From a virus (Duplodnaviria; Heunggongvirae; Uroviricota; Caudoviricetes): DNA of 13,482 nucleotides. The stretch spans positions 1 to 13,482 of IMG/VR virus record IMGVR_UViG_2541047885_000013; one strand, given 5' to 3'. The notes below the pieces were generated by a model that worked only from the letters and a program-made list of their open reading frames with translations, had not been told where the DNA came from and did no database searches. The position numbers and the translations under genes were made by a program. Position 1 is the stretch's first letter; the number at the start of each line of letters is the position of its first letter. This document shows positions 1-13,266 of this stretch, one piece after another.

Positions 1-1284
1 TTACTTCTTCGCCTCTGCAACCACTTTACTACCCACGCCGCGGTTATTGTATTCCCACATGCGGTTGTAGTTAGTGTCATTCAGATTGCGCTGTATTTCG
101 TCGTTATCATCTACGCTGCCGGTATTACCCGCAAACGGACGATTAGAGATCACCGCATCGGCCCACGGTTTAGCCGTGTTAAAACCTTCGTTGATGGCGC
201 TATCACGGATCACCACCTGACCGTTGGTATTGGCATCAACATCCAGCGAGCGGCCCAGTTGCGCCACACCATCACCGAAAGCATTGAAACGGCTGTTTAC
301 GGCGAGGAAACCGTAGTAAATGTTGGACAGCGTAGCCGGTGCAAACACATACGCTTCTTGCTGAGTACGTGAGTTCACCACGCGGAATTCGGTGTTATCG
401 AACACCACTGCGCCGCGACCAGAAACGATATCCACATCCCCTTCAATGTAGCTGTTGGTCACCAGCGTACGCGGCTGACGATTCGTTTCCAGACGGTTCT
501 GCACACCGCTGTTGGTGACAAAGAAGGTGTTCTGACGACCGAGAATGTTAACGTTGTTAATCTGTACCTGGTCACCATCAGTACGCAGTGCCACCGCCGG
601 ATGGTTACCTGCATCTACGCTATCGCCCAGCGTGTTTTCGATGGTCAGATTTTGCAGTTGCAGGCCATTGTTTTGTGACCAGAAGACCGCAGAGCAGAGA
701 ACACCGATACTGTCGCTGCGTTTGCTCTGGCAGCTATCGTACATATACCACGCTGGTTTACCTGGCATATATTTGCCGCGCGGGTTGACGTCGTGACGCC
801 AGTCGGCAGGGCTCATGCCACCATCAAGGGAAAGCCCAATCTTCACATCAATCGGTTTTTCACCTGTACCGTACAGAGTAATTCCACCCGGAGCGGCAGG
901 GACATATACCGTTCCCTGATACTCACCAGGCATCACGGCAATATACTGGCGCTTGTTGGTACGCTTGATAATTGCCGCATCTACCGCCGCCTGAATCGTG
1001 GTATGCGTTACACCTTGAGTGCCCGCCGGGCCGACAACAAAGTCAGGTTGCGCAGGCAGGGTAATCGGGGAAGGATTCCACGCTGCAGCACCTGGTGTCA
1101 GGGATGAAAAATAGTGTTGAGCATCGAAATTCTGCGCTTCTTTTGCCGACAGAATCGGGCGAGAAGAGGTACCAGGCGCGGTTTGATCAGAAGGACGTTG
1201 ATCGGGCGGGGTTGAGCTACAGGCGGTCAGCGTCACGCCAAAAGCCAATGCCAGCGCCAGACGGGAAACTGAAAATGTGTTCAC
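1..1284 (-). CDS. ybhC: YbhC, putative pectinesterase-family outer-membrane lipoprotein (host gene flanking attλ)
   Basis: Complete 427-aa ORF from the track; N-terminus has a lipoprotein signal with lipobox LTAC; sequence matches my recollection of E. coli YbhC, which lies next to attλ on the gal side. The window begins at its stop codon. Confidence 0.85.
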   Translation of the reverse strand: MNTFSVSRLALALAFGVTLTACSSTPPDQRPSDQTAPGTSSRPILSAKEAQNFDAQHYFSSLTPGAAAWNPSPITLPAQPDFVVGPAGTQGVTHTTIQAAVDAAIIKRTNKRQYIAVMPGEYQGTVYVPAAPGGITLYGTGEKPIDVKIGLSLDGGMSPADWRHDVNPRGKYMPGKPAWYMYDSCQSKRSDSIGVLCSAVFWSQNNGLQLQNLTIENTLGDSVDAGNHPAVALRTDGDQVQINNVNILGRQNTFFVTNSGVQNRLETNRQPRTLVTNSYIEGDVDIVSGRGAVVFDNTEFRVVNSRTQQEAYVFAPATLSNIYYGFLAVNSRFNAFGDGVAQLGRSLDVDANTNGQVVIRDSAINEGFNTAKPWADAVISNRPFAGNTGSVDDNDEIQRNLNDTNYNRMWEYNNRGVGSKVVAEAKK

Positions 1285-1330
1285 AGGTTGCTCCGGGCTA
1301 TGAAATAGAAAAATGAATCCGTTGAAGCCT

Positions 1331-1420
1331 GCTTTTTTATACTAAGTTGGCATTATAAAAAAGCATTTCTTATCAACTTGTTGCAACGAACAGGTCACTA
1401 TCAGTCAAAATAAAATCATT
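1331..1420. other. attL: attL of a lambda-type prophage: 15-bp core GCTTTTTTATACTAA (1331-1345) followed by the P' arm
   Basis: Core is read directly at 1331-1345. The following GTTGGCATTATAAAAAAGCATT..CTTATCAA..TTGTTGCAACGAACAGGTCACTATCAGTCAAAATAAAATCATTATTTG matches the remembered lambda attP P' arm (Int arm-type sites) with about 2 mismatches. Host sequence lies to the left and int immediately to the right. Confidence 0.85.
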
Positions 1421-2489
1421 ATTTGATTTCAATTTTGTCCCACTCCCTGCCTCTGTCATCACGATACTGTGATGCCATGGTGTCCGACTTATGCCCGAGA
1501 AGATGTTGAGCAAACTTATCGCTTATCTGCTTCTCATAGAGTCTTGCAGACAAACTGCGCAACTCGTGAAAGGTAGGCGGATCCCCTTCGAAGGAAAGAC
1601 CTGATGCTTTTCGTGCGCGCATAAAATACCTTGATACTGTGCCGGATGAAAGCGGTTCACGACGAGTAGATGCAATTATGGTTTCTCCGCCAAGAATCTC
1701 TTTGCATTTATCAAGTGTTTCCTTCATTGATATCCCGAGAGCATCAACATGCAATGTTGTAGGGATGGCAATTTTTACGCCTGTTTTGCTTTGCTCGACA
1801 TAAAGATATCCATCTACGATATCAGACCACTTCATTTCGCATAAATCCCCAACTCGCTGCCCGGTAACAACAGCCAGTTCCATTGCAAGTCTGAGCCAAC
1901 ATGGTGATGATTCTGCTGCTTGATAAATTTTCAGGTATTCGTCAGCCGTAAGTCTTGATCTCCTTACCTCTGATTTTGCTGCGCGAGTGGCAGCGACCGG
2001 GTTTGTTGTTATATGGCCTTCAGCCATTGCCTCTCGGAATGCATCGCTCAGTGTTGATCTGATTAACTTGGCTGACGCCGCCTTGCCCTCGTCTATGTAT
2101 CCATTGAGCATTGCCGCAATTTCTTTTGTGGTGATGTCTTCAAGTGGAGCATCAGGCAGACCCCTCCTTATTGCTTTAATTTTGCTCATGTAATTTATGA
2201 GTGTCTTCTGCTTGATTCCTCTGTTGACGAGGATTTTTTCGTAGCGATCAAGCCATGAATGTAACGTAACAGAATTATCACTGTTGATTCTCGCTGTCAG
2301 AGGCTTGTGTTTGTGTCCTGAAAATAACTCAATGTTGGCCTGTATAGCTTCAGTGATTGCTATCCTCCTGTCTCGGCCTAAACCAAACTCTTTACCCGTC
2401 CTTGGGTCCCTGTAGCAGTAATATCCATTGTTTCTTATATAAAGGTTAGGGGGTAAATCCCGGCGCTCATGACTTCGCCTTCTTCCCAT
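1419..2489 (-). CDS. int: Integrase (tyrosine recombinase), lambda Int type
   Basis: 356-aa translation MGRRRSHERRDLPPNLYIRNNGYYCYRDPRTGKEF...RDDRGREWDKIEIK matches lambda Int over its full length from memory; position next to attL and overlap with xis are as in lambda. Confidence 0.96.
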   Translation of the reverse strand: MGRRRSHERRDLPPNLYIRNNGYYCYRDPRTGKEFGLGRDRRIAITEAIQANIELFSGHKHKPLTARINSDNSVTLHSWLDRYEKILVNRGIKQKTLINYMSKIKAIRRGLPDAPLEDITTKEIAAMLNGYIDEGKAASAKLIRSTLSDAFREAMAEGHITTNPVAATRAAKSEVRRSRLTADEYLKIYQAAESSPCWLRLAMELAVVTGQRVGDLCEMKWSDIVDGYLYVEQSKTGVKIAIPTTLHVDALGISMKETLDKCKEILGGETIIASTRREPLSSGTVSRYFMRARKASGLSFEGDPPTFHELRSLSARLYEKQISDKFAQHLLGHKSDTMASQYRDDRGREWDKIEIK

Positions 2490-2685
2490 TTCTGATCCTC
2501 TTCAAAAGGCTACCTGTTACTGGTCGATTTAAGTCAACCTTTACCGCTGATTCGTGGAACAGATACTCTCTTCCATCCTTAACCGGAGGAGGGAATATCC
2601 TGCATTCGCGCACCCATCGACGAACTGTTTCAAGGCTTCTTGGGCGTCGCTGGCGTGCGTTCCACTCCTGAAGTGTCAAGTACAT
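2467..2685 (-). CDS. xis: Excisionase, lambda Xis type
   Basis: 72-aa translation MYLTLQEWNARQRRPRSLETVRRWVRECRIFPPPVKDGREYLFHESAVKVDL... matches lambda Xis; its 3' end overlaps the int start by 23 nt as in lambda. Confidence 0.95.
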   Translation of the reverse strand: MYLTLQEWNARQRRPRSLETVRRWVRECRIFPPPVKDGREYLFHESAVKVDLNRPVTGSLLKRIRNGKKAKS

Positions 2686-2790
2686 CGCAAAGTCTCCGCA
2701 ATTACACGCAAGAAAAGCCGCATTGATGCGGCAATGGTAGGTCTGGATATCTTGAGAAATGAACGGGCCTCATCGAGTGTGAGGCTGTGG

Positions 2791-3135
2791 TTAGTCCTTG
2801 CGTAACTCGCTAATTCTTCTGTAAGTCTCTGGTGCTTTGTTTCCGTGTATCTTCATTTCAGACTTCAACAGAGCAACGAGGGAATCCCATTCGGTGAGGA
2901 TGCCTTTGAATGCCGGAACGCGCTTTGCAACCTTGTCGAATGAATCTCTGATTTCTGGGATCTGCTCAACCAGTGCAACGCATCGTCGGAAATCGGCTGC
3001 GTCATGTGGAGCGCCGAAGTGATGACCATAGATATTCTTTTTCAGTCCACATGCGATTGAGGCAAGAGTTGCGCTACTGATGCCGACATCGCCAGTCGAT
3101 TGCCATTTCAAAACCTTCATAGCCAAATCTGACAT
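2791..3135 (-). CDS. Hypothetical protein, 114 aa (accessory gene next to xis)
   Basis: Track ORF 2791..3162; I place the start at the internal ATG (MSDLAMKVLKWQ...) because GGAG sits about 8 nt upstream and the longer N-terminal extension would run through a terminator hairpin. No family recognised. Confidence 0.55.
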   Translation of the reverse strand: MSDLAMKVLKWQSTGDVGISSATLASIACGLKKNIYGHHFGAPHDAADFRRCVALVEQIPEIRDSFDKVAKRVPAFKGILTEWDSLVALLKSEMKIHGNKAPETYRRISELRKD

Positions 3136-3146
3136 TTCTTGTCTCC

Positions 3147-3172
3147 AATAAAAAACCGCCATCAGGCGGTTT
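3147..3172 (-). terminator. Intrinsic terminator-like hairpin (AACCGCC-TGAT-GGCGGTT followed by TTTTTTATT on the minus strand)
   Basis: Read from the sequence: 7-bp GC-rich stem, 4-nt loop and a T-run on the minus strand. The stop codon of the 55-aa ORF lies in the loop, and the T-run runs into the RBS of the 114-aa gene. Confidence 0.5.
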
Positions 3173-3329
3173 GGTGTTCTTTCAGTTCTTCAATTCGAAT
3201 ATTGGTTACGTCTGCATGCGCTATCTGCGCCCATATCATCCAGTGGTTATAGCAGTCGTTGATGTCCTCTGCTTCGATAACCCTGTCGAATGACTCTCCA
3301 TTCCATTCACCTGTGACTCGGAAGTGCAT
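3162..3329 (-). CDS. Small hypothetical protein, 55 aa (MHFRVTGEWNGESFDRVIEAEDINDCYNHWMIWAQIAHADVTNIRIEELKEHQTA)
   Basis: Hand-translated ORF, below the track length cutoff; GGAG lies 8 nt upstream of the ATG (tatGGAGatgataaATG); bracketed by terminator-like hairpins upstream and downstream. In a different frame from the track's 61-aa ORF 3236..3421. Confidence 0.45.
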   Translation of the reverse strand: MHFRVTGEWNGESFDRVIEAEDINDCYNHWMIWAQIAHADVTNIRIEELKEHQTA

Positions 3330-3339
3330 TTATCATCTC

Positions 3340-3367
3340 CATAAAACAAAACTCGCCGTAGCGAGTT
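3340..3367 (-). terminator. Terminator-like hairpin (AACTCGC-tacg-GCGAGTT followed by TTTGTTTTAT on the minus strand)
   Basis: Inverted repeat read directly, about 65 nt downstream of the DUF551 gene stop, with a T-rich tail on the minus strand. Confidence 0.4.
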
Positions 3368-3429
3368 CAGATAAAAGAAATCCCCGCGAGTGCGAGGATT
3401 GTTATTCACCTTTGACGGCAAGTTGAAGG

Positions 3430-4350
3430 TTAGCCACGGTTAACCCCCTGCGGCGGTTCTGGCAGCGGCATCCAGTGGGTTACGTCATCCAAGATATTTC
3501 CTGATAAATATGTGAAAGCTCTATATTTTTTGTAATCAATTGGACTCATTACCCAGTTCCAATATGCTGCCACTATTTGACCTTGACTAAATGCCAGTAA
3601 CATTTTGGTGTCGTCCGGCATTCGCTCACTACAGCTTATCCAACCATCCGGAGTTACCGGAACTTGTGGAATGGCTGTCTGCTCTCGAACGTCATTAGGC
3701 GCTATAGGTTCTGCTGCCAACTGACTGGCATATTTGTTAATGGTAACGATAAGCTCTTGCTCAGCCTCATCCAGACAATCACCGATACCTCGCCTGTCAC
3801 CGTCAAAATCATCGAAATCGGCACGAATCCTGGCAACCTTCAGGATTGCGGACAACACCTCACTAGGAATTGCCGGATAGTTGGTTGACGTTTCCGCGAT
3901 TTCCCGAAAATTATTGGTTGACGAATTCTTGTTTTCCCGAAAGTTTCCGGACTGAAGCATGGCGGCGCGGCAGGCGTTCCATATTTCGGCAGCAATATCG
4001 CGCTCGCTATCGGTTAATTTGTACGTTGAAACATAGCCAGAGAGCATTTCTACGTTTTCCGGAGTTGCTTCTTCAGGCACTACCGGTGCTGGAGGGGCGG
4101 CGTAAATGCCCTCTATCACTAAATGTTTGCGCTCAAAATCATCTGGCTCTCGATGATATACGTAACTCCAATCACCAAGGTTATCATTGCGCCTGCAACG
4201 GAAACCTATCGGCTCTGCTTCCAGCGATGCCAGAGCAATTCGTGCCAGTTCTTCCGCTTCTTCTGCTGGCAGTACAACGTTGCTACCAGGTCCGTATGTT
4301 TCGCGCCACTGCCTGATTGTCAGCAGTCGCTCTTTGGTAATAGTGGTCAT
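3430..4350 (-). CDS. DUF551-like prophage protein, 306 aa
   Basis: Track ORF; the C-terminal segment ending ...VTHWMPLPEPP resembles the DUF551 domain common in enterobacterial prophage early regions; the N-terminal two thirds are unassigned. Confidence 0.65.
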   Translation of the reverse strand: MTTITKERLLTIRQWRETYGPGSNVVLPAEEAEELARIALASLEAEPIGFRCRRNDNLGDWSYVYHREPDDFERKHLVIEGIYAAPPAPVVPEEATPENVEMLSGYVSTYKLTDSERDIAAEIWNACRAAMLQSGNFRENKNSSTNNFREIAETSTNYPAIPSEVLSAILKVARIRADFDDFDGDRRGIGDCLDEAEQELIVTINKYASQLAAEPIAPNDVREQTAIPQVPVTPDGWISCSERMPDDTKMLLAFSQGQIVAAYWNWVMSPIDYKKYRAFTYLSGNILDDVTHWMPLPEPPQGVNRG

Positions 4351-4360
4351 GTGTTAGTCC

Positions 4361-4624
4361 TTATCCTGCTGTACTTTCAACTGATGAGGGGAATAAAATC
4401 TTTTCATCAAATCCGGCATTCATATCATGAACAGCAACACACCAATCCATTGACGAACGATTATCAAGAGCTTCCATGATTTCATCCATGCGGCGCAGGT
4501 CATACAGGTAAATGCTTTTATCGCCAATGGTGTAAAAACCAATTTTTTTCGGTGATGGGCAGCGATCAAGAACGTCCTGTAATTCGCTCAACCATGCTTG
4601 TTCTTTTTTTGTCAAAGTTGCCAT
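4361..4624 (-). CDS. Hypothetical protein, 87 aa
   Basis: Track ORF in the same orientation and tightly packed with its neighbours (2-nt gap to the next gene); no family recognised. Confidence 0.5.
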   Translation of the reverse strand: MATLTKKEQAWLSELQDVLDRCPSPKKIGFYTIGDKSIYLYDLRRMDEIMEALDNRSSMDWCVAVHDMNAGFDEKILFPSSVESTAG

Positions 4625-4625
4625 A

Positions 4626-5168
4626 TCACTCTCCTTTGATGCGAATGTCAGCGACGCGTAATGCGTGTTCTAGGTCAATCAGGTAAAGCCAACTGCCATT
4701 TTCTTTAGGTATCATGACTTGTCGCTCATCTGCATTTATCGGGTGTCCATATCGAAGGTCGTAGCGAGTCGGTAATTGAACTTCCCGCGCTTCCAGTTCA
4801 GCAATACGCTTGCACCCATCAGAGATAACTCCCTCGTAATACTCGCGCTGCTCGTTGAGTTTTGATTTTGCTGCTTCAAGCTCAACGCGCAGCTTCCCAA
4901 CCGTAAGCGCAATATCCTCGTTCTCCTGGTCGCGGCGTTTGATGTATTGCAGGTTTCTTTCCCGTTCATCCAACAATGCCAGCACGGTTTCTGGTCAGGT
5001 CAGAAATTTGAAGGCGTTGAGCGCATCAATATCCACACCGTAATCTTTAAGTTCCTGTTCACTTATCAGATCATCATCAACTGGCAACATTAACAGGCGT
5101 TCCATTGCCGGAATTGCACGTTCTGCCGCCTCACGCAGCGCCAGTGTGTCGATGTCGATGTTGCTCAT
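4626..5168 (-). pseudogene. ea22-like coiled-coil gene interrupted by an in-frame TGA (5' part 4995..5168, 3' part 4626..4985)
   Basis: Track ORFs 4995..5192 and 4626..4985 are in the same frame, separated by one TGA and three sense codons (...FKFLT*PET-V-LALLDERER...). The 5' part has a strong RBS (GAGGAGG) before MSNIDIDTL. The 3' part begins at a GTG with no recognisable RBS. The combined length of about 180 aa is close to lambda Ea22 (182 aa, from memory). Confidence 0.45.
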
Positions 5169-5398
5169 TGTGCCTCCTCGATTTCGTCCCATTCCACCCA
5201 GGCATTCTCTCCATCAGCATCGATTTCACCTTTGTGACCGCATTTGGAACAAACGGCCTCATCACCCGCCCACAAAGAATCTTTGGTTACCGACCATCCT
5301 GTTACCTTGGCTTTGCCGTGCTGGCACTTAGGGCAATCATCAAGCCATTCGACTTCGACCATTGAAGGACCAAATCCATGTTCAGTTCGGATGCTCAT
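5165..5398 (-). CDS. Small zinc-ribbon protein, about 77 aa (two CxxC pairs: CPKC and CSKC)
   Basis: Track ORF 5165..5431; I prefer the start at MSIRTEHG because its ATG overlaps the stop of the upstream gene as ATGA. Its own stop overlaps the start of the ea22-like gene in the same way. Confidence 0.55.
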   Translation of the reverse strand: MSIRTEHGFGPSMVEVEWLDDCPKCQHGKAKVTGWSVTKDSLWAGDEAVCSKCGHKGEIDADGENAWVEWDEIEEAQ

Positions 5399-5943
5399 GA
5401 CTGAACTCCTTTGCGAATCTGTTCCGCCCATTCTTCAAGGGATTTCTCCGCATATTCACCGGACAGGCCATCAATCGGATGCGGTTCATTAGCCAACTCT
5501 TCTTTCGCTGACAAAATCATGCGTGTAACGTCGAAAACTTCACGCAAAGACTTATTGATAAATCCGTGATTGAACGCAGCAGCAAGACGGCTTGCGGTGT
5601 AGTTAATCCCCTCGTTGCGTGCCTCCGCACGTATTTCAGCCAGGAAAGCGTCGGTGTCTGTGGTTTCGATATCGTTAATTTCAGGAAGAATCTCTTCCCA
5701 TGTAGCGATATCGCCATTCAAATGCCATCCGGCAATTCCACTGGAGTTATCCGCAACACTGCGAACAGCTTCAATAGTTTCATGCATTGCCGCATTCTCA
5801 GCCGCCAGAGCAGCATATTTATCTTCAAGTTCACCGAATTTACGCACCAGATATTCAGCGTTTGTTTCGTTAACCTTTAAATCATTTGGGATGCATTTAC
5901 CTTTCAGAAAACCATCCATCTCAATTAGTGACATTTGTTTCAT
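5395..5943 (-). CDS. Hypothetical protein, 182 aa
   Basis: Track ORF; GGAG lies about 9 nt upstream of the ATG; coupled to flanking genes by ATGA overlaps. No family confidently recognised. Confidence 0.6.
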
Positions 5944-6104
5944 TTTTTCCCACTCCGCAACATCGCATTCAGATATTTGTTTTGATTCACTGATGGAAAA
6001 GAATTTCTTTTAAGCAATTCTTCTCTCGATGGCATTGGCTTTACGCGTTGGCGAATAATCATTTCTGCCGGAAGAATGCCGGGGTTGTATGCAAGTCCTC
6101 TCAT
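5940..6104 (-). CDS. Small hypothetical protein, 54 aa ([54 protein letters not shown])
   Basis: Hand-translated, below the track cutoff; its start overlaps the stop of the 93-aa gene (ATGA) and its stop overlaps the start of the 182-aa gene (ATGA). It fills an otherwise non-coding 160-nt gap. Confidence 0.4.
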
Positions 6105-6382
6105 GATTTACTCTCCATGAACTGGTCAACAGCCATGCTAAGTGATACACCTAAAGTCTCGATATGCTGCTGAATATCCTGTAGCGTCTGCGCCTGAGAT
6201 AACAGGATTTCACGGTTGCATAACTCTTTGACCAGATGCTCAAACTTGCTGTAATAACCGATACGGCTTAGTGTTTCTTTCCCTGCATTCTCGCCTTCTT
6301 TGATAATTCCTCTTTCGCTAAGAATCAGATCGTGTTTGGTTCCGGTAATAACGTATTTGCCGAGGTCAATGTTTAGCTTCAT
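6101..6382 (-). CDS. Hypothetical protein, 93 aa
   Basis: Track ORF in operon orientation; no family recognised. Confidence 0.55.
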
Positions 6383-6398
6383 TGTTAATTACTCCATG

Positions 6399-6713
6399 TT
6401 AATTTATTCGTATGCCTGCTCTTCCTTCATCGAGTTTTTTTAGCTTGTATCGCATAGCTCTCACTGAATAAATTGAGCGGCAGGTTGCAATTGCTATTTC
6501 TTCTGCGGAGAACTTACCGAAAAGTGATACTTCGGCTCTTGTCCAGCGTCTTCCACGAAGTCGGCTAACAATGTCAGCGCCAATCCTTGTTGCTTTCGCC
6601 ATTACTGCTTTTTCAGTCCTTTCCAGTTTTTCAGCGATAACTTCAACTGGCATTGTCGCCGCTACTTCGCGCAAGAAATCGACTTCCCATTTCTCCCATG
6701 GAGTCTTTTTCAT
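6399..6713 (-). CDS. Hypothetical protein, 104 aa, with two tandem HTH-like motifs
   Basis: Track ORF. Two internally similar segments (W-x3-E-V..(E/V)EIA...R(T/S)...V.A...) match the general pattern of sigma-region-4/LuxR-type helix-turn-helix motifs; this is a pattern judgement, not a search hit. Confidence 0.55.
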   Translation of the reverse strand: MKKTPWEKWEVDFLREVAATMPVEVIAEKLERTEKAVMAKATRIGADIVSRLRGRRWTRAEVSLFGKFSAEEIAIATCRSIYSVRAMRYKLKKLDEGRAGIRIN

Positions 6714-6724
6714 AGGCGATACCG

Positions 6725-7207
6725 TTATTTGATAAGAAGTGAAGGTTTCCCAACCTTGAGTTGAGCGCCTGGGATATTTATTCCTGCTTTTAGTTGGTGC
6801 TTGATTGCCAGTTTGTCGGCTTTAATTGTCGTTTCGAACTCAACGTATTCAGGAGGAAGGGCGCTTGAGTCGATGATTTCTACAATTTCTGACGGTTTGC
6901 GGATTGTTACCTGGTGAATACCTGCTCGAATATTTTTCTTGCCAACCATTTCAAGCGATGACGCTATATATGATTTGATGCTGTCAATCTTATTTTGAAT
7001 TACTGCGGCTCGCTCATTCAGTGACTTTGCCTCTTCCTTGAGGCGTTCAGCATAACCAGATTCATTTTTAATGACGGAAAGAAGTTGCTCTATTTTATCG
7101 GTAAATTCTCCTTCCATGCCTTCTATTGTGTCAGCAATCATCTCTGGTTCTAAATCTGAATCCATCAATTTTGCGTATTCATTGGCAATTTCATATAGTT
7201 TGCTCAC
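6725..7207 (-). CDS. Coiled-coil protein resembling the siphovirus Gp157 family, often found beside phage recombinases
   Basis: Track ORF 6725..7213 begins at a TTG; I prefer the GTG start two codons in (GGAGG about 6 nt upstream). The family assignment is from recollection and the genomic context directly downstream of recT. Confidence 0.4.
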   Translation of the reverse strand: MSKLYEIANEYAKLMDSDLEPEMIADTIEGMEGEFTDKIEQLLSVIKNESGYAERLKEEAKSLNERAAVIQNKIDSIKSYIASSLEMVGKKNIRAGIHQVTIRKPSEIVEIIDSSALPPEYVEFETTIKADKLAIKHQLKAGINIPGAQLKVGKPSLLIK

Positions 7208-8102
7208 TGGCAACCTCCAGTTTCGCTTTGCATTCTGCGTAAATGGCTTGTACGTTCTGCTGCAATTTCATTCCAGATGTCAGGCGATATGCTTCTGCAA
7301 AATATCGCTTCAAATCATCCATGTTTTCAGCCTGAGCCATTTCATCACAAAGAAGTTGTGCTTTATCCGTTATTTCCTGCTGGCGTTTCCGTTCATCTTC
7401 GCGGATATCTTCCTCTGATTTGTGCGGCATAACTGGTTCAGTCCACACACCTTCTTCTTCGTTTAGTACGTGAATAGCACTATCAAGACGTGATGCCTTA
7501 GGCCAATACTTGCTTGCACGCTTTACGACCGTCTTTCGCGCCATCTCATTCCAGTGATTTACCCATGGTCCTTTATCGCTGAATGCCGCCTTGCTTGTTT
7601 TCCTTACAGCCTCAATTTCAGCCAGACTCATCTCTTCCGTTAGATAATCACCTGCTGGCGTCTTAACTGTGCAGTAAACGCCAACGATATCACCACGATC
7701 ACCGAAGGCGTTGTATTTATGGGTTGGTGCTTTATCAAGCCCGTTTGACTCATAGGTATCGTTAGCATGAACAAGTTTTGCCTGACCCCATGAGATAACA
7801 CCAGACTCCATTGCAATATGGAGCAATCCCATATAACTGATATCAAGGCACACCATGCCGTCGCGAGGAACCAGATAAGCCAGTTTGCTGGCCGGGTTTA
7901 AGGTGATGCCGATCGCCGCAACATTGATGATGGCGTTCTGTGCGCTGGTTGGATTTGCCAGTGCCGTTTTAGCCAGGTAATCATTTTTCTGGAAATACTG
8001 AATTGCAAACTGGCTTTCCTTAGCCCATGTCACCGTCTGTTCAGTCAATGCTCCGCAGAATAACTGCTCTTGCTGTTTAACGAATTCAACGATATTGCTC
8101 AT
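7191..8102 (-). CDS. recT: RecT-family single-strand annealing recombinase
   Basis: 303-aa translation contains ...GPWVNHWNEMARKTVVKRASKYWP..., closely paralleling Rac RecT ...GPWVTHWEEMAKKTAIRRLFKYLP..., plus the RecT-like segment NVAAIGITLNP. Confidence 0.8.
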   Translation of the reverse strand: MSNIVEFVKQQEQLFCGALTEQTVTWAKESQFAIQYFQKNDYLAKTALANPTSAQNAIINVAAIGITLNPASKLAYLVPRDGMVCLDISYMGLLHIAMESGVISWGQAKLVHANDTYESNGLDKAPTHKYNAFGDRGDIVGVYCTVKTPAGDYLTEEMSLAEIEAVRKTSKAAFSDKGPWVNHWNEMARKTVVKRASKYWPKASRLDSAIHVLNEEEGVWTEPVMPHKSEEDIREDERKRQQEITDKAQLLCDEMAQAENMDDLKRYFAEAYRLTSGMKLQQNVQAIYAECKAKLEVASEQTI

Positions 8103-8410
8103 GCAGCTTCTCCATAAATATGTCTGCGTTTGAATATTGCGAAGGCATATTCAGCCTTAACTCTTTCGGTTATTGCATCCCAGAACCATTCAGCGGCTTT
8201 TTCCTGATAGTTACAGTCATCATCTTCCAGCCAGTCGATAGCGTCCTTAGTGTGTTCATCTGGTTTATATGAGCGAAGCATTTCGCTTATTGGGTCGCAA
8301 CGTTTGCAGAGGCGATCAACTTCACTGTTGATTCGTTCGTAATCTTCATCAGTAAAACTTGCGATTATTTGCGATATTTCACGCTTATCATTCAGAGTCA
8401 GAATCATCAT
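8099..8410 (-). CDS. Hypothetical protein, 103 aa
   Basis: Track ORF; AGGAG lies 4 nt upstream of the ATG; its stop overlaps the recT start (ATGA). Confidence 0.55.
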   Translation of the reverse strand: MMILTLNDKREISQIIASFTDEDYERINSEVDRLCKRCDPISEMLRSYKPDEHTKDAIDWLEDDDCNYQEKAAEWFWDAITERVKAEYAFAIFKRRHIYGEAA

Positions 8411-8495
8411 CTTTCTCCTGTTCTTTGTGCTGATTGAGCATTTTGTTCATCTGACGAATGAATTCTTCGTCTGACCAGTTATCTGTAAAACTCAT
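8388..8495 (-). CDS. Small acidic hypothetical protein, 35 aa (MSFTDNWSDEEFIRQMNKMLNQHKEQEKDDDSDSE)
   Basis: Hand-translated; its start overlaps the stop of the cIII-like gene (ATGA); its 3' end overlaps the start of the 103-aa gene in another frame. Weak RBS. Confidence 0.3.
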   Translation of the reverse strand: MSFTDNWSDEEFIRQMNKMLNQHKEQEKDDDSDSE

Positions 8496-8662
8496 GGACG
8501 GCCTTGTTGTTTCAAAATATCCCAAAGCTTTTCGAGCAAACTTTTCATTCTTGGTTGTTTAAAGTCTGCTCCGGTTAAAATATTTTTTCGTGAATGCTGT
8601 ACCGATAAAATCGGGTTGAAAGGGCGAACCGATGCCGCCCCTGCAATAGCGAACTGTTGCAT
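8492..8662 (-). CDS. cIII: cIII-like protein, 56 aa (putative FtsH inhibitor)
   Basis: Internal start of track ORF 8492..8767, with AGGAG 5 nt upstream of the ATG. The translation MQQFAIAG...KSLLEKLWDILKQQGRP resembles lambda CIII (MQYAIAGW...ESLLERITRKLRDGWKRLIDILNQPGVP, from memory), and it lies in the expected position in the pL operon. Confidence 0.5.
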   Translation of the reverse strand: MQQFAIAGAASVRPFNPILSVQHSRKNILTGADFKQPRMKSLLEKLWDILKQQGRP

Positions 8663-8866
8663 AGGATGCTCCTTCTGTTTGATTGCATAACGAAAACGCC
8701 TCAAGTGAAGCGTTATTGGTATGCATATAAAAAAGCCCTCACATAGGAGGGCAAAGAAGATTTCCAATAATCAGAACAAGTCGGCTCCTGTTTAGTTACG
8801 AGCGACATTGCTCCGTGTATTCACTCGTTGGAATGAATACACAGAGCAGTGTTTATTCTGTTTTTT

Positions 8867-8896
8867 ATGGCAAAAATAAAAGCTGCCATCAGGCAG
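8867..8896 (-). terminator. Intrinsic terminator-like hairpin (GCTGCC-TGAT-GGCAGC followed by TTTTATTTTT on the minus strand), in a tL1-like position
   Basis: Read from the sequence; it lies in the pL operon downstream of N and the small acidic ORF and upstream of cIII, a position analogous to lambda tL1. Confidence 0.5.
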
Positions 8897-8969
8897 CCTT
8901 GTTGTTCTGTTTACCAAGTTCTCTGGAAATCATTGCCGTCGTTCGTATTGTCCACACCATTGATTTTTA

Positions 8970-9056
8970 TCAATAGTCGTAGTCATACGGATAGTCCTGG
9001 TATTGTTCCATCACATCCTGCGGATGCTCTTCGAACTCTTCAAATTCTTCTTCCAT
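8970..9056 (-). CDS. Very acidic 28-aa peptide (MEEEFEEFEEHPQDVMEQYQDYPYDYDY)
   Basis: Hand-translated; strong RBS (GAGGTGA) 4 nt upstream of the ATG; first ORF downstream of N. The track's plus-strand ORF 8849..9088 is antisense to it. Confidence 0.4.
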   Translation of the reverse strand: MEEEFEEFEEHPQDVMEQYQDYPYDYDY

Positions 9057-9064
9057 ATATCACC

Positions 9065-9391
9065 TCAAATAAGTGGTTTGCTGCCTAATTTCATTTTCTG
9101 GCGACCAACACAAGTCACACCCATTTCACTGCGTGGCTTGCTGTACCATGTGCGCTGATTCTTGCGCTCAATACGTTGCAGGTTGCTTTCAATCTGTTCG
9201 TGGTATTCAGCCAGCACTGTAAGGTCTATCGGATTCAGTGCGCTTTCTACTCGTGATTTCGGTTTGCGATTCAGCGAGAGAATTGGGCGGTTAACTGGTT
9301 TTGCGCTTACCCCAACCAACAGGGGATTTGCTGCTTTCCATTGAGCCTGTTTCTCTGCGCGACGTTCGCGGCGGCGTGTTTGTGCATCCAT
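9065..9391 (-). CDS. N: Antitermination protein N (lambda type)
   Basis: 108-aa translation MDAQTRRRERRAEKQAQWKAANPLLVGVSAKPVNRPILSLNRKPKSRVESALNPIDLTVLAEYH... matches lambda N (arginine-rich boxB-binding motif at the N-terminus); the extreme C-terminus differs. Confidence 0.93.
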   Translation of the reverse strand: MDAQTRRRERRAEKQAQWKAANPLLVGVSAKPVNRPILSLNRKPKSRVESALNPIDLTVLAEYHEQIESNLQRIERKNQRTWYSKPRSEMGVTCVGRQKMKLGSKPLI

Positions 9392-9589
9392 CTGGATTCT
9401 CCTGTCAGTTAGCTTTGGTGATTGGATGGCCGGCGCTGAACCCCGGCTTACTGGTTAGAGCGCCCGCACTACCAGTGACGCTGTCTTGAGGCGCAGATTG
9501 GTTACTGCTTGCCATGAGCGCTGTTTATACATTGGTCGAGCATCAGCCTGCTCATTCATCCAATCCCAAAGCCTTCTGCTTTGAAAGCT

Positions 9590-9622
9590 GCCCTTCTTCA
9601 GGGCTTAATTTTTAAGAGCATC
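9590..9622 (-). promoter_or_regulatory. nutL: nutL (boxA CGCTCTTAA-like, boxB GCCCTGAAGAAGGGC on the minus strand)
   Basis: The reverse complement of 9590-9622 reads GATGCTCTTAAAAATTAAGCCCTGAAGAAGGGC, matching lambda nutL boxA and boxB, in the leader between pL and N. Confidence 0.85.
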
Positions 9623-9652
9623 ACCTTCATGGTGGTTAGTGCGTCCTGCTGA

Positions 9653-9688
9653 TGGCTAAATAGTACGATTTGTACTTTATCGAGTCAA
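9653..9688 (-). promoter_or_regulatory. pL promoter (-35 TTGACT, 17-bp spacer, -10 TACTAT, predicted +1 near 9653) with an overlapping operator AAAGTACAAATCGTACTATT
   Basis: Minus-strand sequence TTGACT-N17-TACTAT-TTAGCC-ATCAGCAGGACGCAC has the same architecture as lambda pL and its transcript start (ATCAGCAGG), but the operator sequence is different from lambda's. Confidence 0.7.
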
Positions 9689-9750
9689 TACAAAATGTTC
9701 TAAATATGATTAGTTTTTTATAACGCTTTGTATTTAATGGGTTTATGTTT

Positions 9751-9783
9751 TGGAAAAAGAAAACCCGACGCTAAGGTCGGGTT
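9751..9783 (-). terminator. Intrinsic terminator immediately downstream of cI (AACCCGAC-loop-GTCGGGTT followed by TTCTTTTTCC on the minus strand)
   Basis: 8-bp GC-rich stem and T-run read directly, about 30 nt after the cI stop. Confidence 0.6.
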
Positions 9784-9813
9784 ATTGTTGTGTGTTTTAG
9801 AGTTGTGAGGCTG

Positions 9814-10473
9814 TTAACTAAATGTCTCTTCAGGCCACTGGCTGGCGATAACTTTCCCTACTACGGAACAGCTATCATTGCATGGAATCATTGGATATTG
9901 CGGGTTTAGTGGCTGTAGGAACACCTGACCGCTATCCCTGATCAGTTTCTTGAAGGTAAACTCGTCACCACCAAGTCTGGCTATGCAGAAATCACCTGGC
10001 TCAACAGCCTGCTCAGGGTCAACGAGAATTAACATCCCGTCAGGAAAGCTTGGCTTGGATCCTGTTGGCGCGGTCATGGAATTACCTTCAACTTCAAGCC
10101 AGAACGCACAATCACTGGCTTTTTTGGTTGTGCTGACCCATCTCTCCGCATCACCTTTGGTAAAGGTTCTAAGCTCAGGCGAGAACATCCCGGCCTGAAC
10201 ATGAGAAAAAACAGGGTACTCATATTGTTTTTTAACGGGGGCAGATGAGTATTCGCCAACAGGTGAAAATGTACCGTCGTGGTTGAATGAGACGTTATCA
10301 ATACCAAGGTATTTAAACACCACACCAATCTCGTCAAGAGATGGATGACGAGATCCGCGCAACCAGTGACCAATTCCACCCTGCGTCATACCAAGCTCTT
10401 CAGCTAACTTCTCTTGAGTTATGCCGAGCTCTTTCATTCTGGATCTAGCCAGTTCATACCATTTCATTTTCAT
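9814..10473 (-). CDS. cI: cI-type prophage repressor: lambda-like C-terminal S24 autopeptidase/dimerisation domain joined to a non-lambda N-terminal HTH domain
   Basis: Track ORF 9814..10515. From ...[39 protein letters not shown]... to the end it matches the lambda CI C-terminal domain almost residue for residue (from memory). The N-terminal about 90 aa ([40 protein letters not shown]...) is an XRE-type HTH unlike lambda's. Start chosen at MKMKW (10473); 10467 or 10515 are possible. Confidence 0.85.
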
Positions 10474-10529
10474 ACCCTTATTATTACGCTCTGTACTAAA
10501 ACCATCCATGCACAAGATGTATTTTTTGT

Positions 10530-10558
10530 TTGCATTCTAAAAGTACATATCGTATTAT
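10530..10558 (+). promoter_or_regulatory. pR promoter (-35 TTGCAT, 17-bp spacer, -10 TATTAT) with an overlapping operator AAAGTACATATCGTATTATT
   Basis: Read directly in the cI-cro intergenic region. The 20-bp operator-like sequence over the -10 is a near copy (2 mismatches) of the one overlapping the pL -10; a third related site (TAGTACAGAGCGTAATAAT, minus strand, about 10479-10498) sits just upstream of the cI start. Confidence 0.55.
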
Positions 10559-10584
10559 TGTTTCATGGTTACTATGGAGGGCAT

Positions 10585-10800
10585 ATGAGCAACCTACGAA
10601 AATATCGAGAGTCACTGAATATCTCTCAAACAACACTTGCTAAGGCAGTTGGATGCACACAGGGAGCTATCGGACATTGGGAATCTGGTCGTCGCTTCCC
10701 AGACCTTAAAACATGCCGTGCTCTTGTTGAGTGCCTAAACAAGTTAGGCGCAAAAGTCAGTCTTGATGACGTGTTCCCGCCGGAACACAAAGCCGCTTAA
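10585..10800 (+). CDS. cro: Cro-like repressor, 71 aa, XRE-type HTH
   Basis: Internal ATG of track ORF 10414..10800, with GGAGGG 4 nt upstream. Its HTH (ISQTTLAKAVGCTQGAIGHWESG) is similar to the cI N-terminal HTH. It is divergent from cI and followed by nutR. Confidence 0.8.
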   Translation: MSNLRKYRESLNISQTTLAKAVGCTQGAIGHWESGRRFPDLKTCRALVECLNKLGAKVSLDDVFPPEHKAA

Positions 10801-10809
10801 GACATTCTA

Positions 10810-10840
10810 GCTCTTACACATCACAGCCCTGAAAAAGGGC
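10810..10840 (+). promoter_or_regulatory. nutR: nutR (boxA GCTCTTACACA, boxB GCCCTGAAAAAGGGC)
   Basis: Sequence AGCTCTTACACATCACAGCCCTGAAAAAGGGC matches lambda nutR boxA and boxB, between cro and cII. Confidence 0.85.
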
Positions 10841-10916
10841 ATTACCAGAAACAAATCTCTATGGTTTTGCGTTTCTTTGCGAAGCCAACTCTATCTAATC
10901 ATTAAGGAAATTATCT

Positions 10917-11198
10917 ATGGGTACTATTGCAACTAAAAGCAAGAAAGCGGCTCGCATCGAGTCGGCCTTGCTGAACAAACTGGCACTGATGGGGCAGAAG
11001 ACATTCGCTCGAGCAATGGGGGTTCCTGAATATCAGGTAAGCCGATGGAAGAATGGTTTCTTCTCGCAGGTAAGCATGATGCTTGCTGTTCTGGAATACG
11101 GAATCGAAGACGATGAAATGGCTGAATTGACTAAGCGGCTTGCCGATTACCTGACAAAAGAAAAAGCCCCGAAGAACGGCGAATTCTTCGAGGCATGA
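10917..11198 (+). CDS. cII: cII-like transcriptional activator, 93 aa
   Basis: Translation ...[33 protein letters not shown]...[18 protein letters not shown]... parallels lambda CII ([33 protein letters not shown]...LLAVLEWGVVDDDMARL); position after cro and nutR. Confidence 0.75.
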
Positions 11199-11232
11199 TG
11201 TAGAAAGACTGGATCAATCCACAGGAGTAATT

Positions 11233-11379
11233 ATGACAAAACAACTCAGTCCTTACCAGGACAAAATTCACAAACACATACTACGTGATCGCTTCCTGTC
11301 CAGCTTCAAGCAGCCTGGTCGATTCCGGGCTGAGTTGGAAAAAGTGAAGCTGATGCAGAAGGAGAAAGGTCATGAGTAA
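11233..11379 (+). CDS. Small hypothetical protein, 48 aa, between cII and O
   Basis: Hand-translated ([48 protein letters not shown]); AGGAG lies 5 nt upstream of the ATG; its 3' end overlaps the O start by 8 nt. Confidence 0.35.
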
Positions 11380-12232
11380 TCTTGCAACCGTAACACATTT
11401 AAGGCCTTCACAACGGCCTGTGGAGCGTCGTGTGGCAGAAGTTGAAGATGGTTATACCCGTCTTGCAAATGCCCTGTATGAAGAGCTTATCGGCGCAGAT
11501 TTAACGAAAAATCAGAGCAAGGTTGCCCACGCCATATGCCGTAAAACATACGGCTACGGTAAAAAGATGGATCGCATCTCTGATAGTCAGTTAGCTCAAA
11601 TTACCAGGCTGCCAAGACAGAAGGTAAACAAGGCCAAGAATGAGCTTATCGCGATGAAGGTTATCCTTCGCGAAGGCCAGCAAATCGGGCCTAACAAGAA
11701 CATCGAGGAATGGCAAATCGAAGGGTGTCACTACTCTGGTGATAATGTCACTGCATTGGTGACAAAAAGTGTCACCAAAACGGTGACAGCGCTGTCACCA
11801 AAACAGGGACACACAAAAGAAACTATTACAAAAGAAAAAAGAAATAATAAAAACACTATGTCCGAAAGTGTTCGGACGGAGTGTGAAAAATCACCTGACC
11901 GTCACGAAGAAACCGACAAGGCATTCGAGGAAATATTCTGGTGTGCAGGCATGCGGAAAGCCGGGAAGAAAAACGCAGCTTCGGCATTCAGAACACAGTT
12001 CAGGGAATGGCGTAAAACTACCAGGGGTACGGCAAGCGAGTTTGCCACGATGCTGGCAGAAGACATCGCATGCAGGAATGGTAAGCAGTTCGGATTCGAC
12101 AGGTTGTTACCATCGAGCTACCTGAACGGTCAACGCTGGAACGACGAGAAGCCAGAAACTATTCAACCACAATCCAAACCATCATCCGCAATCACCGTAT
12201 CGAAAACTGGCTACGTGTTTTTCGACAGGTGA
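11372..12232 (+). CDS. O: Replication initiator, lambda O-like N-terminal iteron-binding domain
   Basis: The N-terminal region ([56 protein letters not shown]...GPNKNIEEW) parallels lambda O (DGYARLSNMLLEAYSGADLTKRQFKVLLAILRKTYGWNKPMDRITDSQLSEITKLP...GPNKNISEW); iterons lie inside the gene. The C-terminal half is not recognisably lambda-like. Confidence 0.8.
11726..11860. repeat. Putative replication origin inside the O gene: GTCAC/GTGAC iterons followed by an AT-rich tract
   Basis: Read directly: TGTCAC (11726), TGTCAC (11745), GGTGACA (11758), TGTCACC (11770), GGTGACA (11782), TGTCACC (11793), then an A/T-rich stretch (about 11815-11860). This organisation is analogous to the lambda origin. 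Confidence 0.6.
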
Positions 12233-12235
12233 ACC

Positions 12236-12343
12236 ATGAAATCAAAAATCAAATCGCTACTGGTCGCTGGTTATAACCACGGTTGGTTAAGTATTTCGTT
12301 TGTCGATTTCTGGTTTAAAAATCTCAATCTGAGGGAATCATGA
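12236..12343 (+). CDS. Small hydrophobic peptide, 35 aa (MKSKIKSLLVAGYNHGWLSISFVDFWFKNLNLRES)
   Basis: Hand-translated; AGGTGA lies just upstream of the ATG; its stop overlaps the start of the primase-like gene (ATGA). Confidence 0.35.
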   Translation: MKSKIKSLLVAGYNHGWLSISFVDFWFKNLNLRES

Positions 12344-13266
12344 CGCCAAGTGAACTCAGCGACCTGCTTTGGGCGCAGGTTGACAGGGTGGCTCCGCACC
12401 TGTTGCCAAACGGCAAGAAAGAGGGGCATGAGTGGGTTGCCGGTAACGTCAACGGTGACAAGGGAAACAGCCTTAAGGTCAACCTTAGCGGCAAGAAAAA
12501 ATGGGCTGATTTCGCTGAGGGAGACGGCGGTGACATGCTTGATTTGTGGATGGCGTGTCGTGGAATTAACCTGCATCAGGCTATGCAGGAAGCGAAAGCC
12601 TTTCTCGGAATCAAGGATGACGATCACCATTTCGATGCCAAACGTGAGAAGAAATTCTCCAGACCTGATCGCAAGAAAATCGCCCGCTATGTTACCAGAA
12701 CAGAATCCCATCTTGAGTACCTGCAATCGCGTGGCATATCGCCAGAAGTCGTAAAGCGCTACGAGGTTGTAAGCGGCAAGGTGTGGAATGGAGAGCGGGA
12801 ACTGGATGCTCTGGTGATTCCGTACAAACGCGATGGTGAGTTGTTGCAGGTCAAGCGAATCAGCACTGAGCGCCCGGACGGGAAGAAAGTCATTATGGCA
12901 GAAGGTGATTGCGAACCTTGTCTGTTCGGATGGCAGGCTCTGGACGCTGGCGTGAGGGCGGTTGTACTTTGCGAAGGCGAAATTGATTGTATGAGCTATG
13001 CGCAATACGGCATCTCGGCGTTATCCGTGCCGTTTGGTGGAGGGAAAGGCGCTAAGCAACAGTGGATTGAGTTTGAGTACCACAACCTCGACAGGTTTGA
13101 GGAAATATTCATCTCGATGGACGTTGATGATGTTGGTCGTGAAGCCGCAAGGGAAATCGCAAGCCGACTCGGTGAACATCGTTGCCGTCTTGTTACTCTG
13201 CCGTACAAAGACATTAACGAATGCCTGATGAATGGTGTTACCGAGGATGAAATCTGGCAGTACTGA
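12340..13266 (+). CDS. Toprim-domain primase-like replication protein, probably truncated at its 3' end by an IS insertion
   Basis: 308-aa track ORF with Toprim-like motifs (VVLCEGEIDCMSYAQYG and ISMDVDDVGREA). Its stop codon TGA (13264-13266) is the first three bases of the IS terminal repeat. Confidence 0.65.
   Translation: MTPSELSDLLWAQVDRVAPHLLPNGKKEGHEWVAGNVNGDKGNSLKVNLSGKKKWADFAEGDGGDMLDLWMACRGINLHQAMQEAKAFLGIKDDDHHFDAKREKKFSRPDRKKIARYVTRTESHLEYLQSRGISPEVVKRYEVVSGKVWNGERELDALVIPYKRDGELLQVKRISTERPDGKKVIMAEGDCEPCLFGWQALDAGVRAVVLCEGEIDCMSYAQYGISALSVPFGGGKGAKQQWIEFEYHNLDRFEEIFISMDVDDVGREAAREIASRLGEHRCRLVTLPYKDINECLMNGVTEDEIWQY

Follow-up and report, generated by a model that had tools for sequence, protein, structure and literature searches.

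Lambdoid phages exchange immunity cassettes between conserved flanks, as in the lambda imm434 and imm21 hybrids, and a mosaic junction between the domains of their repressors is a textbook feature of the group. The region described here, positions 9653-10584 of a 13,482-nucleotide stretch from a tailed virus (Caudoviricetes; IMG/VR virus record IMGVR_UViG_2541047885_000013, positions 1 to 13,482; the whole stretch is referred to as the window), contains the repressor gene cI with its left (OL) and right (OR) operator regions and ends at the start of cro. It very probably represents a complete immunity module of a lambdoid E. coli prophage, of an already sequenced and widespread immunity type. 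Details of the predicted module, including cooperativity and the control of the maintenance promoter pRM, are uncertain in view of a 33-bp operator spacing, a replaced activating surface, and an OL-OR distance of about 0.9 kb.

The same repressor, with 97% amino acid identity and an identical helix-turn-helix, is encoded by the Stx1-converting phage and the Stx2 II phage of strain Morioka V526 (AP005153/AP005154), and the Cro of AP005153 differs from the window Cro by a single amino acid. The AP005153 entry describes CI as 'similar to phage lambda CI' and additionally lists a putative cro, pR, pRM, and three OR and three OL putative operators, each of which has a positional homologue in the window with the same half-sites. 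The initial annotation had called the operators novel and the immunity specificity new, a view that does not hold, since the same arrangement was already deposited in these records. Stx1/Stx2 II-type phages also lay out pL, pR, and pRM as in the window. They differ from it by about 7% nucleotide divergence and by operator central bases and the length of a T-run; their N is of the HK97 type, and cargo genes fill 1.2-1.6 kb of the cI-OL interval, whereas the window has a lambda-type N and nutL and, in that interval, only 136 bp containing a terminator.

More distant are the repressors of the Salmonella P22-like phages epsilon34, g341c, and SPN9CC, which are collinear homologues with 50-54% identity over the head and linker and about 79% over the tail (50% and 79%, respectively, for the N- and C-terminal parts of epsilon34 CI). 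The authors of the epsilon34 study described a lambda/HK97-like protease domain together with a head about 50% identical to those of phages L, VT2-Sa, and Nil2, and proposed the operator consensus WTACRAWWTGTAT (PMC2629481). The window sites follow the TAC(R)-N3-(Y)GTA design of this consensus. In epsilon34 and in the window alike, 59 bp separate the outer OR sites, but the middle site divides this distance into 24+35 bp in the former and 33+26 bp in the latter (read by eye). The recognition helix reads TKGAVSHW in epsilon34-type repressors and TQGGIGHW in the window protein; therefore, the specificity of the epsilon34 type is probably different.

Lambda itself shares with the window a tripartite OL and OR, divergent pRM and pR promoters, nutL, nutR, N, a CII site for pRE, and a t_imm hairpin. 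It differs in carrying rexA and rexB, the absence of which here brings OL and OR to within about 0.9 kb of each other, compared with about 2.4 kb in lambda. Among the other classical repressors, those of 434 and P22 have heads that resemble the CI head only weakly (E = 0.006-0.4), and those of P22 and phage 21 share 45-47% identity with the CI C-terminal domain.

Repressor CI and its paralogue Cro

The two regulatory proteins are encoded divergently, as follows:

9814-10473, minus strand: cI, 219 amino acids from the ATG at 10473, with an HTH_3 head and a Peptidase_S24 tail
9814-10224, minus strand: codons 84-219 of cI, the lambda-type part, with the last stretch of the linker, the cleavage site, and the oligomerisation/self-cleavage domain
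10225-10473, minus strand: codons 1-83 of cI, the immunity-specific part, with the helix-turn-helix domain and the greater part of the linker
10585-10800, plus strand: cro, 71 amino acids, HTH_3

Pfam places HTH_3 at CI residues 11-58 (E = 8e-11) and PF00717 (Peptidase_S24) at residues 87-209 (E = 9e-29), and the lambda cleavage site A112-G113 and catalytic pair S150 and K193 (gene numbering) correspond in the alignment to Ala94-Gly95 and to Ser132 and Lys175. In BLASTP the window and lambda repressors are 71% identical overall, with nearly all of the alignment lying after the residues YEYPVF. Protein identity is 19.5% before codon 84 (lambda 102) and 97.8% from there on (lambda 102-237), while the codon-level DNA alignment gives 44.9% and 93.2% on the two sides of 10224/10225; blastn limits lambda homology within cI to 9820-10224. 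The boundary falls in the linker between the two domains, and the Ala94-Gly95 self-cleavage site follows 10 residues later. As judged from these alignments, CI is confirmed as a mosaic relative to lambda, with a lambda-type tail and a different DNA-binding head. The initial annotation had anticipated a C-terminal domain nearly identical to that of lambda combined with a helix-turn-helix, a cro gene, and operators of another specificity, and each of these statements is borne out. The head is not lambda-like, no BLASTP alignment was obtained between the window Cro and lambda Cro, and lambda operators (TATCACCGC-type 17-mers) are absent from the window at up to three mismatches; judged by its DNA-binding domain, its Cro, and its operators, the module is not imm-lambda. 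The head and linker (codons 1-83) are instead 96% identical in amino acids to those of the Stx1-converting phage CI.

In 434 and P22, Cro is a small, all-helical protein paralogous to the repressor head, which lambda Cro is not, and it reads the repressor's sites. The window resembles 434 and P22 here: its small, all-helical Cro and the CI head are paralogous (35% identity, E = 5e-13), and both carry the recognition helix TQGxIGHW, in keeping with one set of sites being read by both proteins. A search of the PDB returned 28tn_A, an 82-residue 'lambda repressor-like protein', as the sole strong match; it is a full-length homologue of Cro (10585-10797, about 45% identity, E = 2e-16) and could be used as a template for Cro modelling. 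No structure of the CI head on DNA was found in that search.

Distribution of the module and age of the junction

Megablast with the cI-cro segment retrieved the Stx1-converting phage, the Stx2 II phage, Nil2 (AJ413274), 2851, PA-series Stx2a phages, and 2B8 at 93% identity, and phi458, Louie, Dewey, vB_EcoP-720R6, and vB_EcoP-683R2 at 97-99%; the immunity type is also present in 1717, ev017, ev207, and E212. CI heads at least 95% identical to that of the window, with 96-100% identity over residues 1-83 and an identical helix-turn-helix, occur in at least 63 phage records, and the segment 9392-10920 is covered to at least 80% in 127 of 5,426 complete E. coli genomes, with identity up to 99.7%. 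The Cro protein was detected in 209 IMG/VR contigs and is 99-100% identical in the best 80 loci. These 80 loci, 77 of which have a full-length CI, served as the sample for the CI survey: in 43 of the 80 CI is identical to the window protein, and all 77 full-length proteins have a lambda-type tail, 97-99% identical to that of lambda, with the same junction. The module is thus not new, having been sequenced and annotated before and being common in E. coli, and for the same reason it carries little weight as a discovery; the 'chimera' is the standard form of this immunity type.

A third head type on a tail at least 95% lambda-type was looked for in PhiR5_2, ev207, and E212, and only the lambda head or the present head was seen. 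The repressor of BAA2326, an Stx2a phage of O104:H4, is also related to lambda CI (PMC5977221), but the operators footprinted for it, among them ATAACTGTGCGTAATG, bear no relation to the sites here, and it is of a different immunity type. A published clade classification of Stx-phage CI proteins groups the proteins and is silent on operators and on the domain junction (PMC8951638).

The boundary at codon 84 had been read as the site of a discrete recombination that grafted a lambda C-terminal domain onto a foreign repressor and thereby created a new immunity type. The sharp step from 45% to 93% nucleotide identity to lambda at that codon, and the lambda-type N, nut, int, and xis around it, are what such a recent and specific event should leave behind. 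The position of the boundary stands, but a recent origin is very unlikely, because the junction is common to 77/77 full-length CIs and to the GenBank phages. In addition, the window tail is 93.2% identical to lambda in nucleotides and the Stx1-phage tail 92.9%, while these two differ from each other by 8.5%; with mutual identities of 91.5-93.2%, none of the three tails was recently acquired from either of the others. The head-tail pairing also recurs in epsilon34, with identities of 50% and 79%, which argues that the pairing is old and predates these phages. From these comparisons the junction is judged to be an old one shared across the type, not the product of an event in this prophage alone, and either lambda or the present type may be the derived 'chimera'.

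Operators and promoters

The non-lambda sequence has sharp edges: lambda homology ends at 9654, approximately at the expected pL transcription start, resumes at 10224 within cI, and then again at nutR (about 10810). Within these bounds, the initial annotation had pointed to one 20-bp sequence overlapping the -10 elements of both pL and pR. The exact 20-mer AAAGTACAWATCGTAYTATT indeed occurs twice in the 13.5 kb, at 9659-9678 (minus strand) and 10540-10559 (plus strand), in the same register of two sigma-70-like promoters. Chance would give 0.01 occurrences, and two matches never arose in 200 shuffles. However, the repeated unit is not a 20-bp direct motif but a 17-bp imperfect palindrome, A(G/A)TAC(A/G)-N3-(C/T)GTA(C/T)T. 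The third related copy noted just upstream of the cI start was recovered at 10482-10498, and three further sites (OL2, OL3, and OR2) had been missed, giving six predicted operators in all:

9661-9677, minus strand: OL1, AAGTACAAATCGTACTA (minus strand), a perfect AGTAC-N5-GTACT dyad over the pL -10; best weight-matrix score, 19.9
9686-9702, minus strand: OL2, overlapping the pL -35
9719-9735, minus strand: OL3
10482-10498, plus strand: OR3, TATTACGCTCTGTACTA, over the inferred pRM -10 and 9 bp upstream of the cI ATG
10508-10524, plus strand: OR2 (weak), ATGCACAAGATGTATTT, adjoining the inferred pRM -35; homologue of an AP005153 annotated site
10541-10557, plus strand: OR1, AAGTACATATCGTATTA, over the pR -10; score 18.2, second best in the window

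The corresponding promoters are:

9660-9688, minus strand: pL, TTGACT-17-TACTAT, sigma-70-like
10529-10558, plus strand: pR, TTTGCA-18-TATTAT (or TTGCAT-17-TATTAT), sigma-70-like
10480-10508, minus strand: pRM (inferred), TGGATG-17-AATAAT, read from the sequence and matched to the AP005153 annotation

With a divergent cro and multiple predicted dyad operators over pR/pRM and pL, the region has the arrangement of a lambdoid CI/LexA-like prophage repressor module. When the window was scored with a weight matrix derived from the annotated AP005153 operators, exactly the six predicted sites came out as its top six positions, the sixth scoring 11.0 compared with a maximum sixth-best score of 9.7 in 200 shuffles; as the matrix derives only from the six AP005153 sites and the two regions are homologous, this test is not independent. 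When 30 distinct OR sequences from relatives were compared, variation affected 4 of 36 columns within the half-sites and 30 of 69 columns elsewhere in the intergenic region (Fisher p = 8e-4). Even at OR2 the half-sites are kept among relatives while the central bases drift, and at OL all three sites are kept between strongly divergent spacers.

The 20-mers might alternatively be the mere common core of similar pL and pR promoters of shared origin, with the true repressor sites elsewhere or differently formed. Both copies do span the spacer and -10 in the same register, and the operators are predicted from sequence. This explanation is nevertheless extremely improbable: the sites are dyad-symmetric, OL1 perfectly so, as expected of targets for a dimeric helix-turn-helix protein; four more copies lie outside any pL or pR -10; the half-sites are kept while central and flanking bases drift; and the epsilon34 relatives have sites of the same design.

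Several points nonetheless weigh against reading the region as a complete module with all six operators. OR2 taken alone, with its matrix score of 11.0, is no better than the best chance match. The relatives compared in the conservation test are more than 90% identical, which limits its power, and their columns are not independent. The inferred pRM was not picked up by a consensus promoter scan. OR1 and OR2 are spaced by 33 bp here compared with 24 bp in lambda, and the activating patch of lambda CI sits in the head, the part that is replaced here. Moreover, no DNA-binding, footprinting, or immunity data on this repressor were found in the searchable literature, so that the operator assignment rests on sequence logic and database annotation.

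The OR1-OR2 spacing also varies among relatives, from 32 to 35 bp, by way of a T-run that starts from the right half of OR2 (10521-10526) and has a length of 6 T in the window, as against 5, 7, or 8 T in the others; these length differences may be real variation or homopolymer sequencing error. Since the spacing is both unlike that of lambda and variable, lambda-style cooperativity and pRM activation are not to be assumed. An alternative OR2 at a lambda- or epsilon34-like distance of about 24-25 bp from OR1 was sought and rejected, as no half-site pair fits there and only 10508-10524 is correctly oriented. The distance from the OR2 centre to the cI ATG is 43 bp, compared with 42 bp in lambda.

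The start of cI is affected by the same layout. Public annotations give CI 231 amino acids from an ATG at 10509, a start that lies inside OR2, and an alternative start at 10467 has a better-spaced AAGGG ribosome-binding site. From the promoter layout we infer that a start at 10473 (or 10467) fits better than 10509, and the deposited gene models are probably too long. The inferred pRM start lies at or beside the ATG at 10473, which would give a leaderless or near-leaderless cI mRNA.

The proposed switch and its prophage setting

A working model can be assembled from the sequence and from the biology of lambda, 434, and P22. Briefly, CI dimers would bind the 17-bp dyads through the HTH_3 head. 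As OL1 and OL2 cover the -10 and -35 of pL and OR1 covers the pR -10, CI bound there would silence N and cro, while OR2, beside the weak pRM -35, is the place from which CI could activate its own synthesis, and OR3, over the pRM -10, would mediate negative autoregulation. Cro, with the recognition helix of the CI head, would bind the same sites and flip the switch. The lambda-type tail (98% identical, with the Ala-Gly, Ser, and Lys residues kept) would supply dimerisation and cooperative dimer-dimer contacts as in lambda, along with RecA-stimulated self-cleavage, through which SOS induction would proceed. On an evolutionary scale, specificity cassettes consisting of head, operators, and cro would be swapped between homologous flanks, namely the C-terminal coding sequence of cI, the pL start/nutL, and nutR, and the boundary within cI would be a mosaic junction of the type classical for lambdoid phages.

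That the module might be a decayed remnant in a cryptic prophage, its switch no longer working, has next to no probability, for although the late genes lie outside the 13.5 kb visible, cI, cro, cII, N, int, and xis are each intact, CI is identical in 43/80 IMG/VR loci, and plaque-forming phages carry the same module. One of these is phi458, which has an identical CI head and undergoes spontaneous induction (PMC9701743).

Many Stx1 and Stx2a phages of clinical relevance belong to this immunity type, for the repressor of which no biochemical study was found in the literature; such a study could start from the six operators mapped here and from the pRM/pR geometry. Because the tail is shared with lambda, repressor cross-talk in polylysogens also becomes a testable question. 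Mixed oligomers are conceivable because the tail is 98% identical to that of lambda and is carried by many co-resident lambdoid prophages, but it is rather unlikely that CI proteins of different immunity types do form mixed dimers or tetramers through it. If they did, a dimer with mismatched heads would have low affinity for either set of operators, so that one prophage would loosen the repression of another and their induction thresholds would become linked. As a lesser possibility, the length of the T-run between OR2 and the pR -35 (5-8 T) might alter the OR1-OR2 phasing and thereby tune spontaneous induction among homoimmune prophages.

The window constitutes the left part of the lambdoid prophage, with host DNA at its beginning, and the prophage occupies the lambda attachment site. 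The features around the immunity region are:

1-1284, minus strand: pectinesterase-like host gene
1331-1345: lambda attachment core, GCTTTTTTATACTAA
9590-9620, minus strand: nutL, lambda-type, with boxB at 9590-9604 and boxA at about 9613-9620
9762-9783, minus strand: bidirectional terminator hairpin 3' of cI, lambda t_imm-like
10809-10840, plus strand: nutR, lambda-type, with a boxA-like element at 10809-10816 and boxB GCCCTGAAAAAGGGC at 10826-10840
10929-10942, minus strand: CII-binding repeat of pRE, TTGCTTTTAGTTGC, TTGC-N6-TTGC, inside the 5' end of cII, as in lambda

The lambda-type N/nut and int/xis machinery claimed at the outset was found throughout. The int and xis genes, which come after the attachment core, are 98% and 99% identical to those of lambda, and N is 91% identical at the protein level; the nutL stretch (9565-9654) is 96.7% and the nutR stretch (10810-10880) 79% identical to lambda. 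Rightward of the immunity region the gene order is cII, an O-type initiator, and a Toprim primase/helicase. The CII protein is 49% identical to lambda CII, and a CII-dependent pRE is indicated by the TTGCTTTTAGTTGC repeat. A second TTGC-N6-TTGC repeat of the CII type lies at 2698-2711, upstream of xis in the pI position, as in lambda, so that both repeats occupy lambda positions although CII itself is only 49% identical. Between cI and OL, rexA and rexB are absent, and the stretch around the hairpin there (9756-9791) is 88.9% identical to the lambda sequence downstream of rexB. An Rfam scan of the whole window matched no RNA families.

The cI-OL gap (9736-9813) is compact in 56 of the 80 relatives and holds 0.85-1.6 kb of other genes in 17, and thus behaves as a cargo insertion point. 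The early-left genes after int and xis include RecT, a Mu Gam-like protein, and cIII; the recombination module (6725-8102) comprises RecT and the Mu Gam-like protein and not lambda exo/bet/gam, and the replication module (11372-13266) comprises the O-type initiator and the Toprim primase/helicase and not lambda P. The leader of N (9421-9564, from nutL to the N start codon) is not lambda-like despite the lambda-type nutL (in nucleotides) and N (in amino acids), and forms another small mosaic patch, with the matches of close phage relatives starting only at about 9555-9567.

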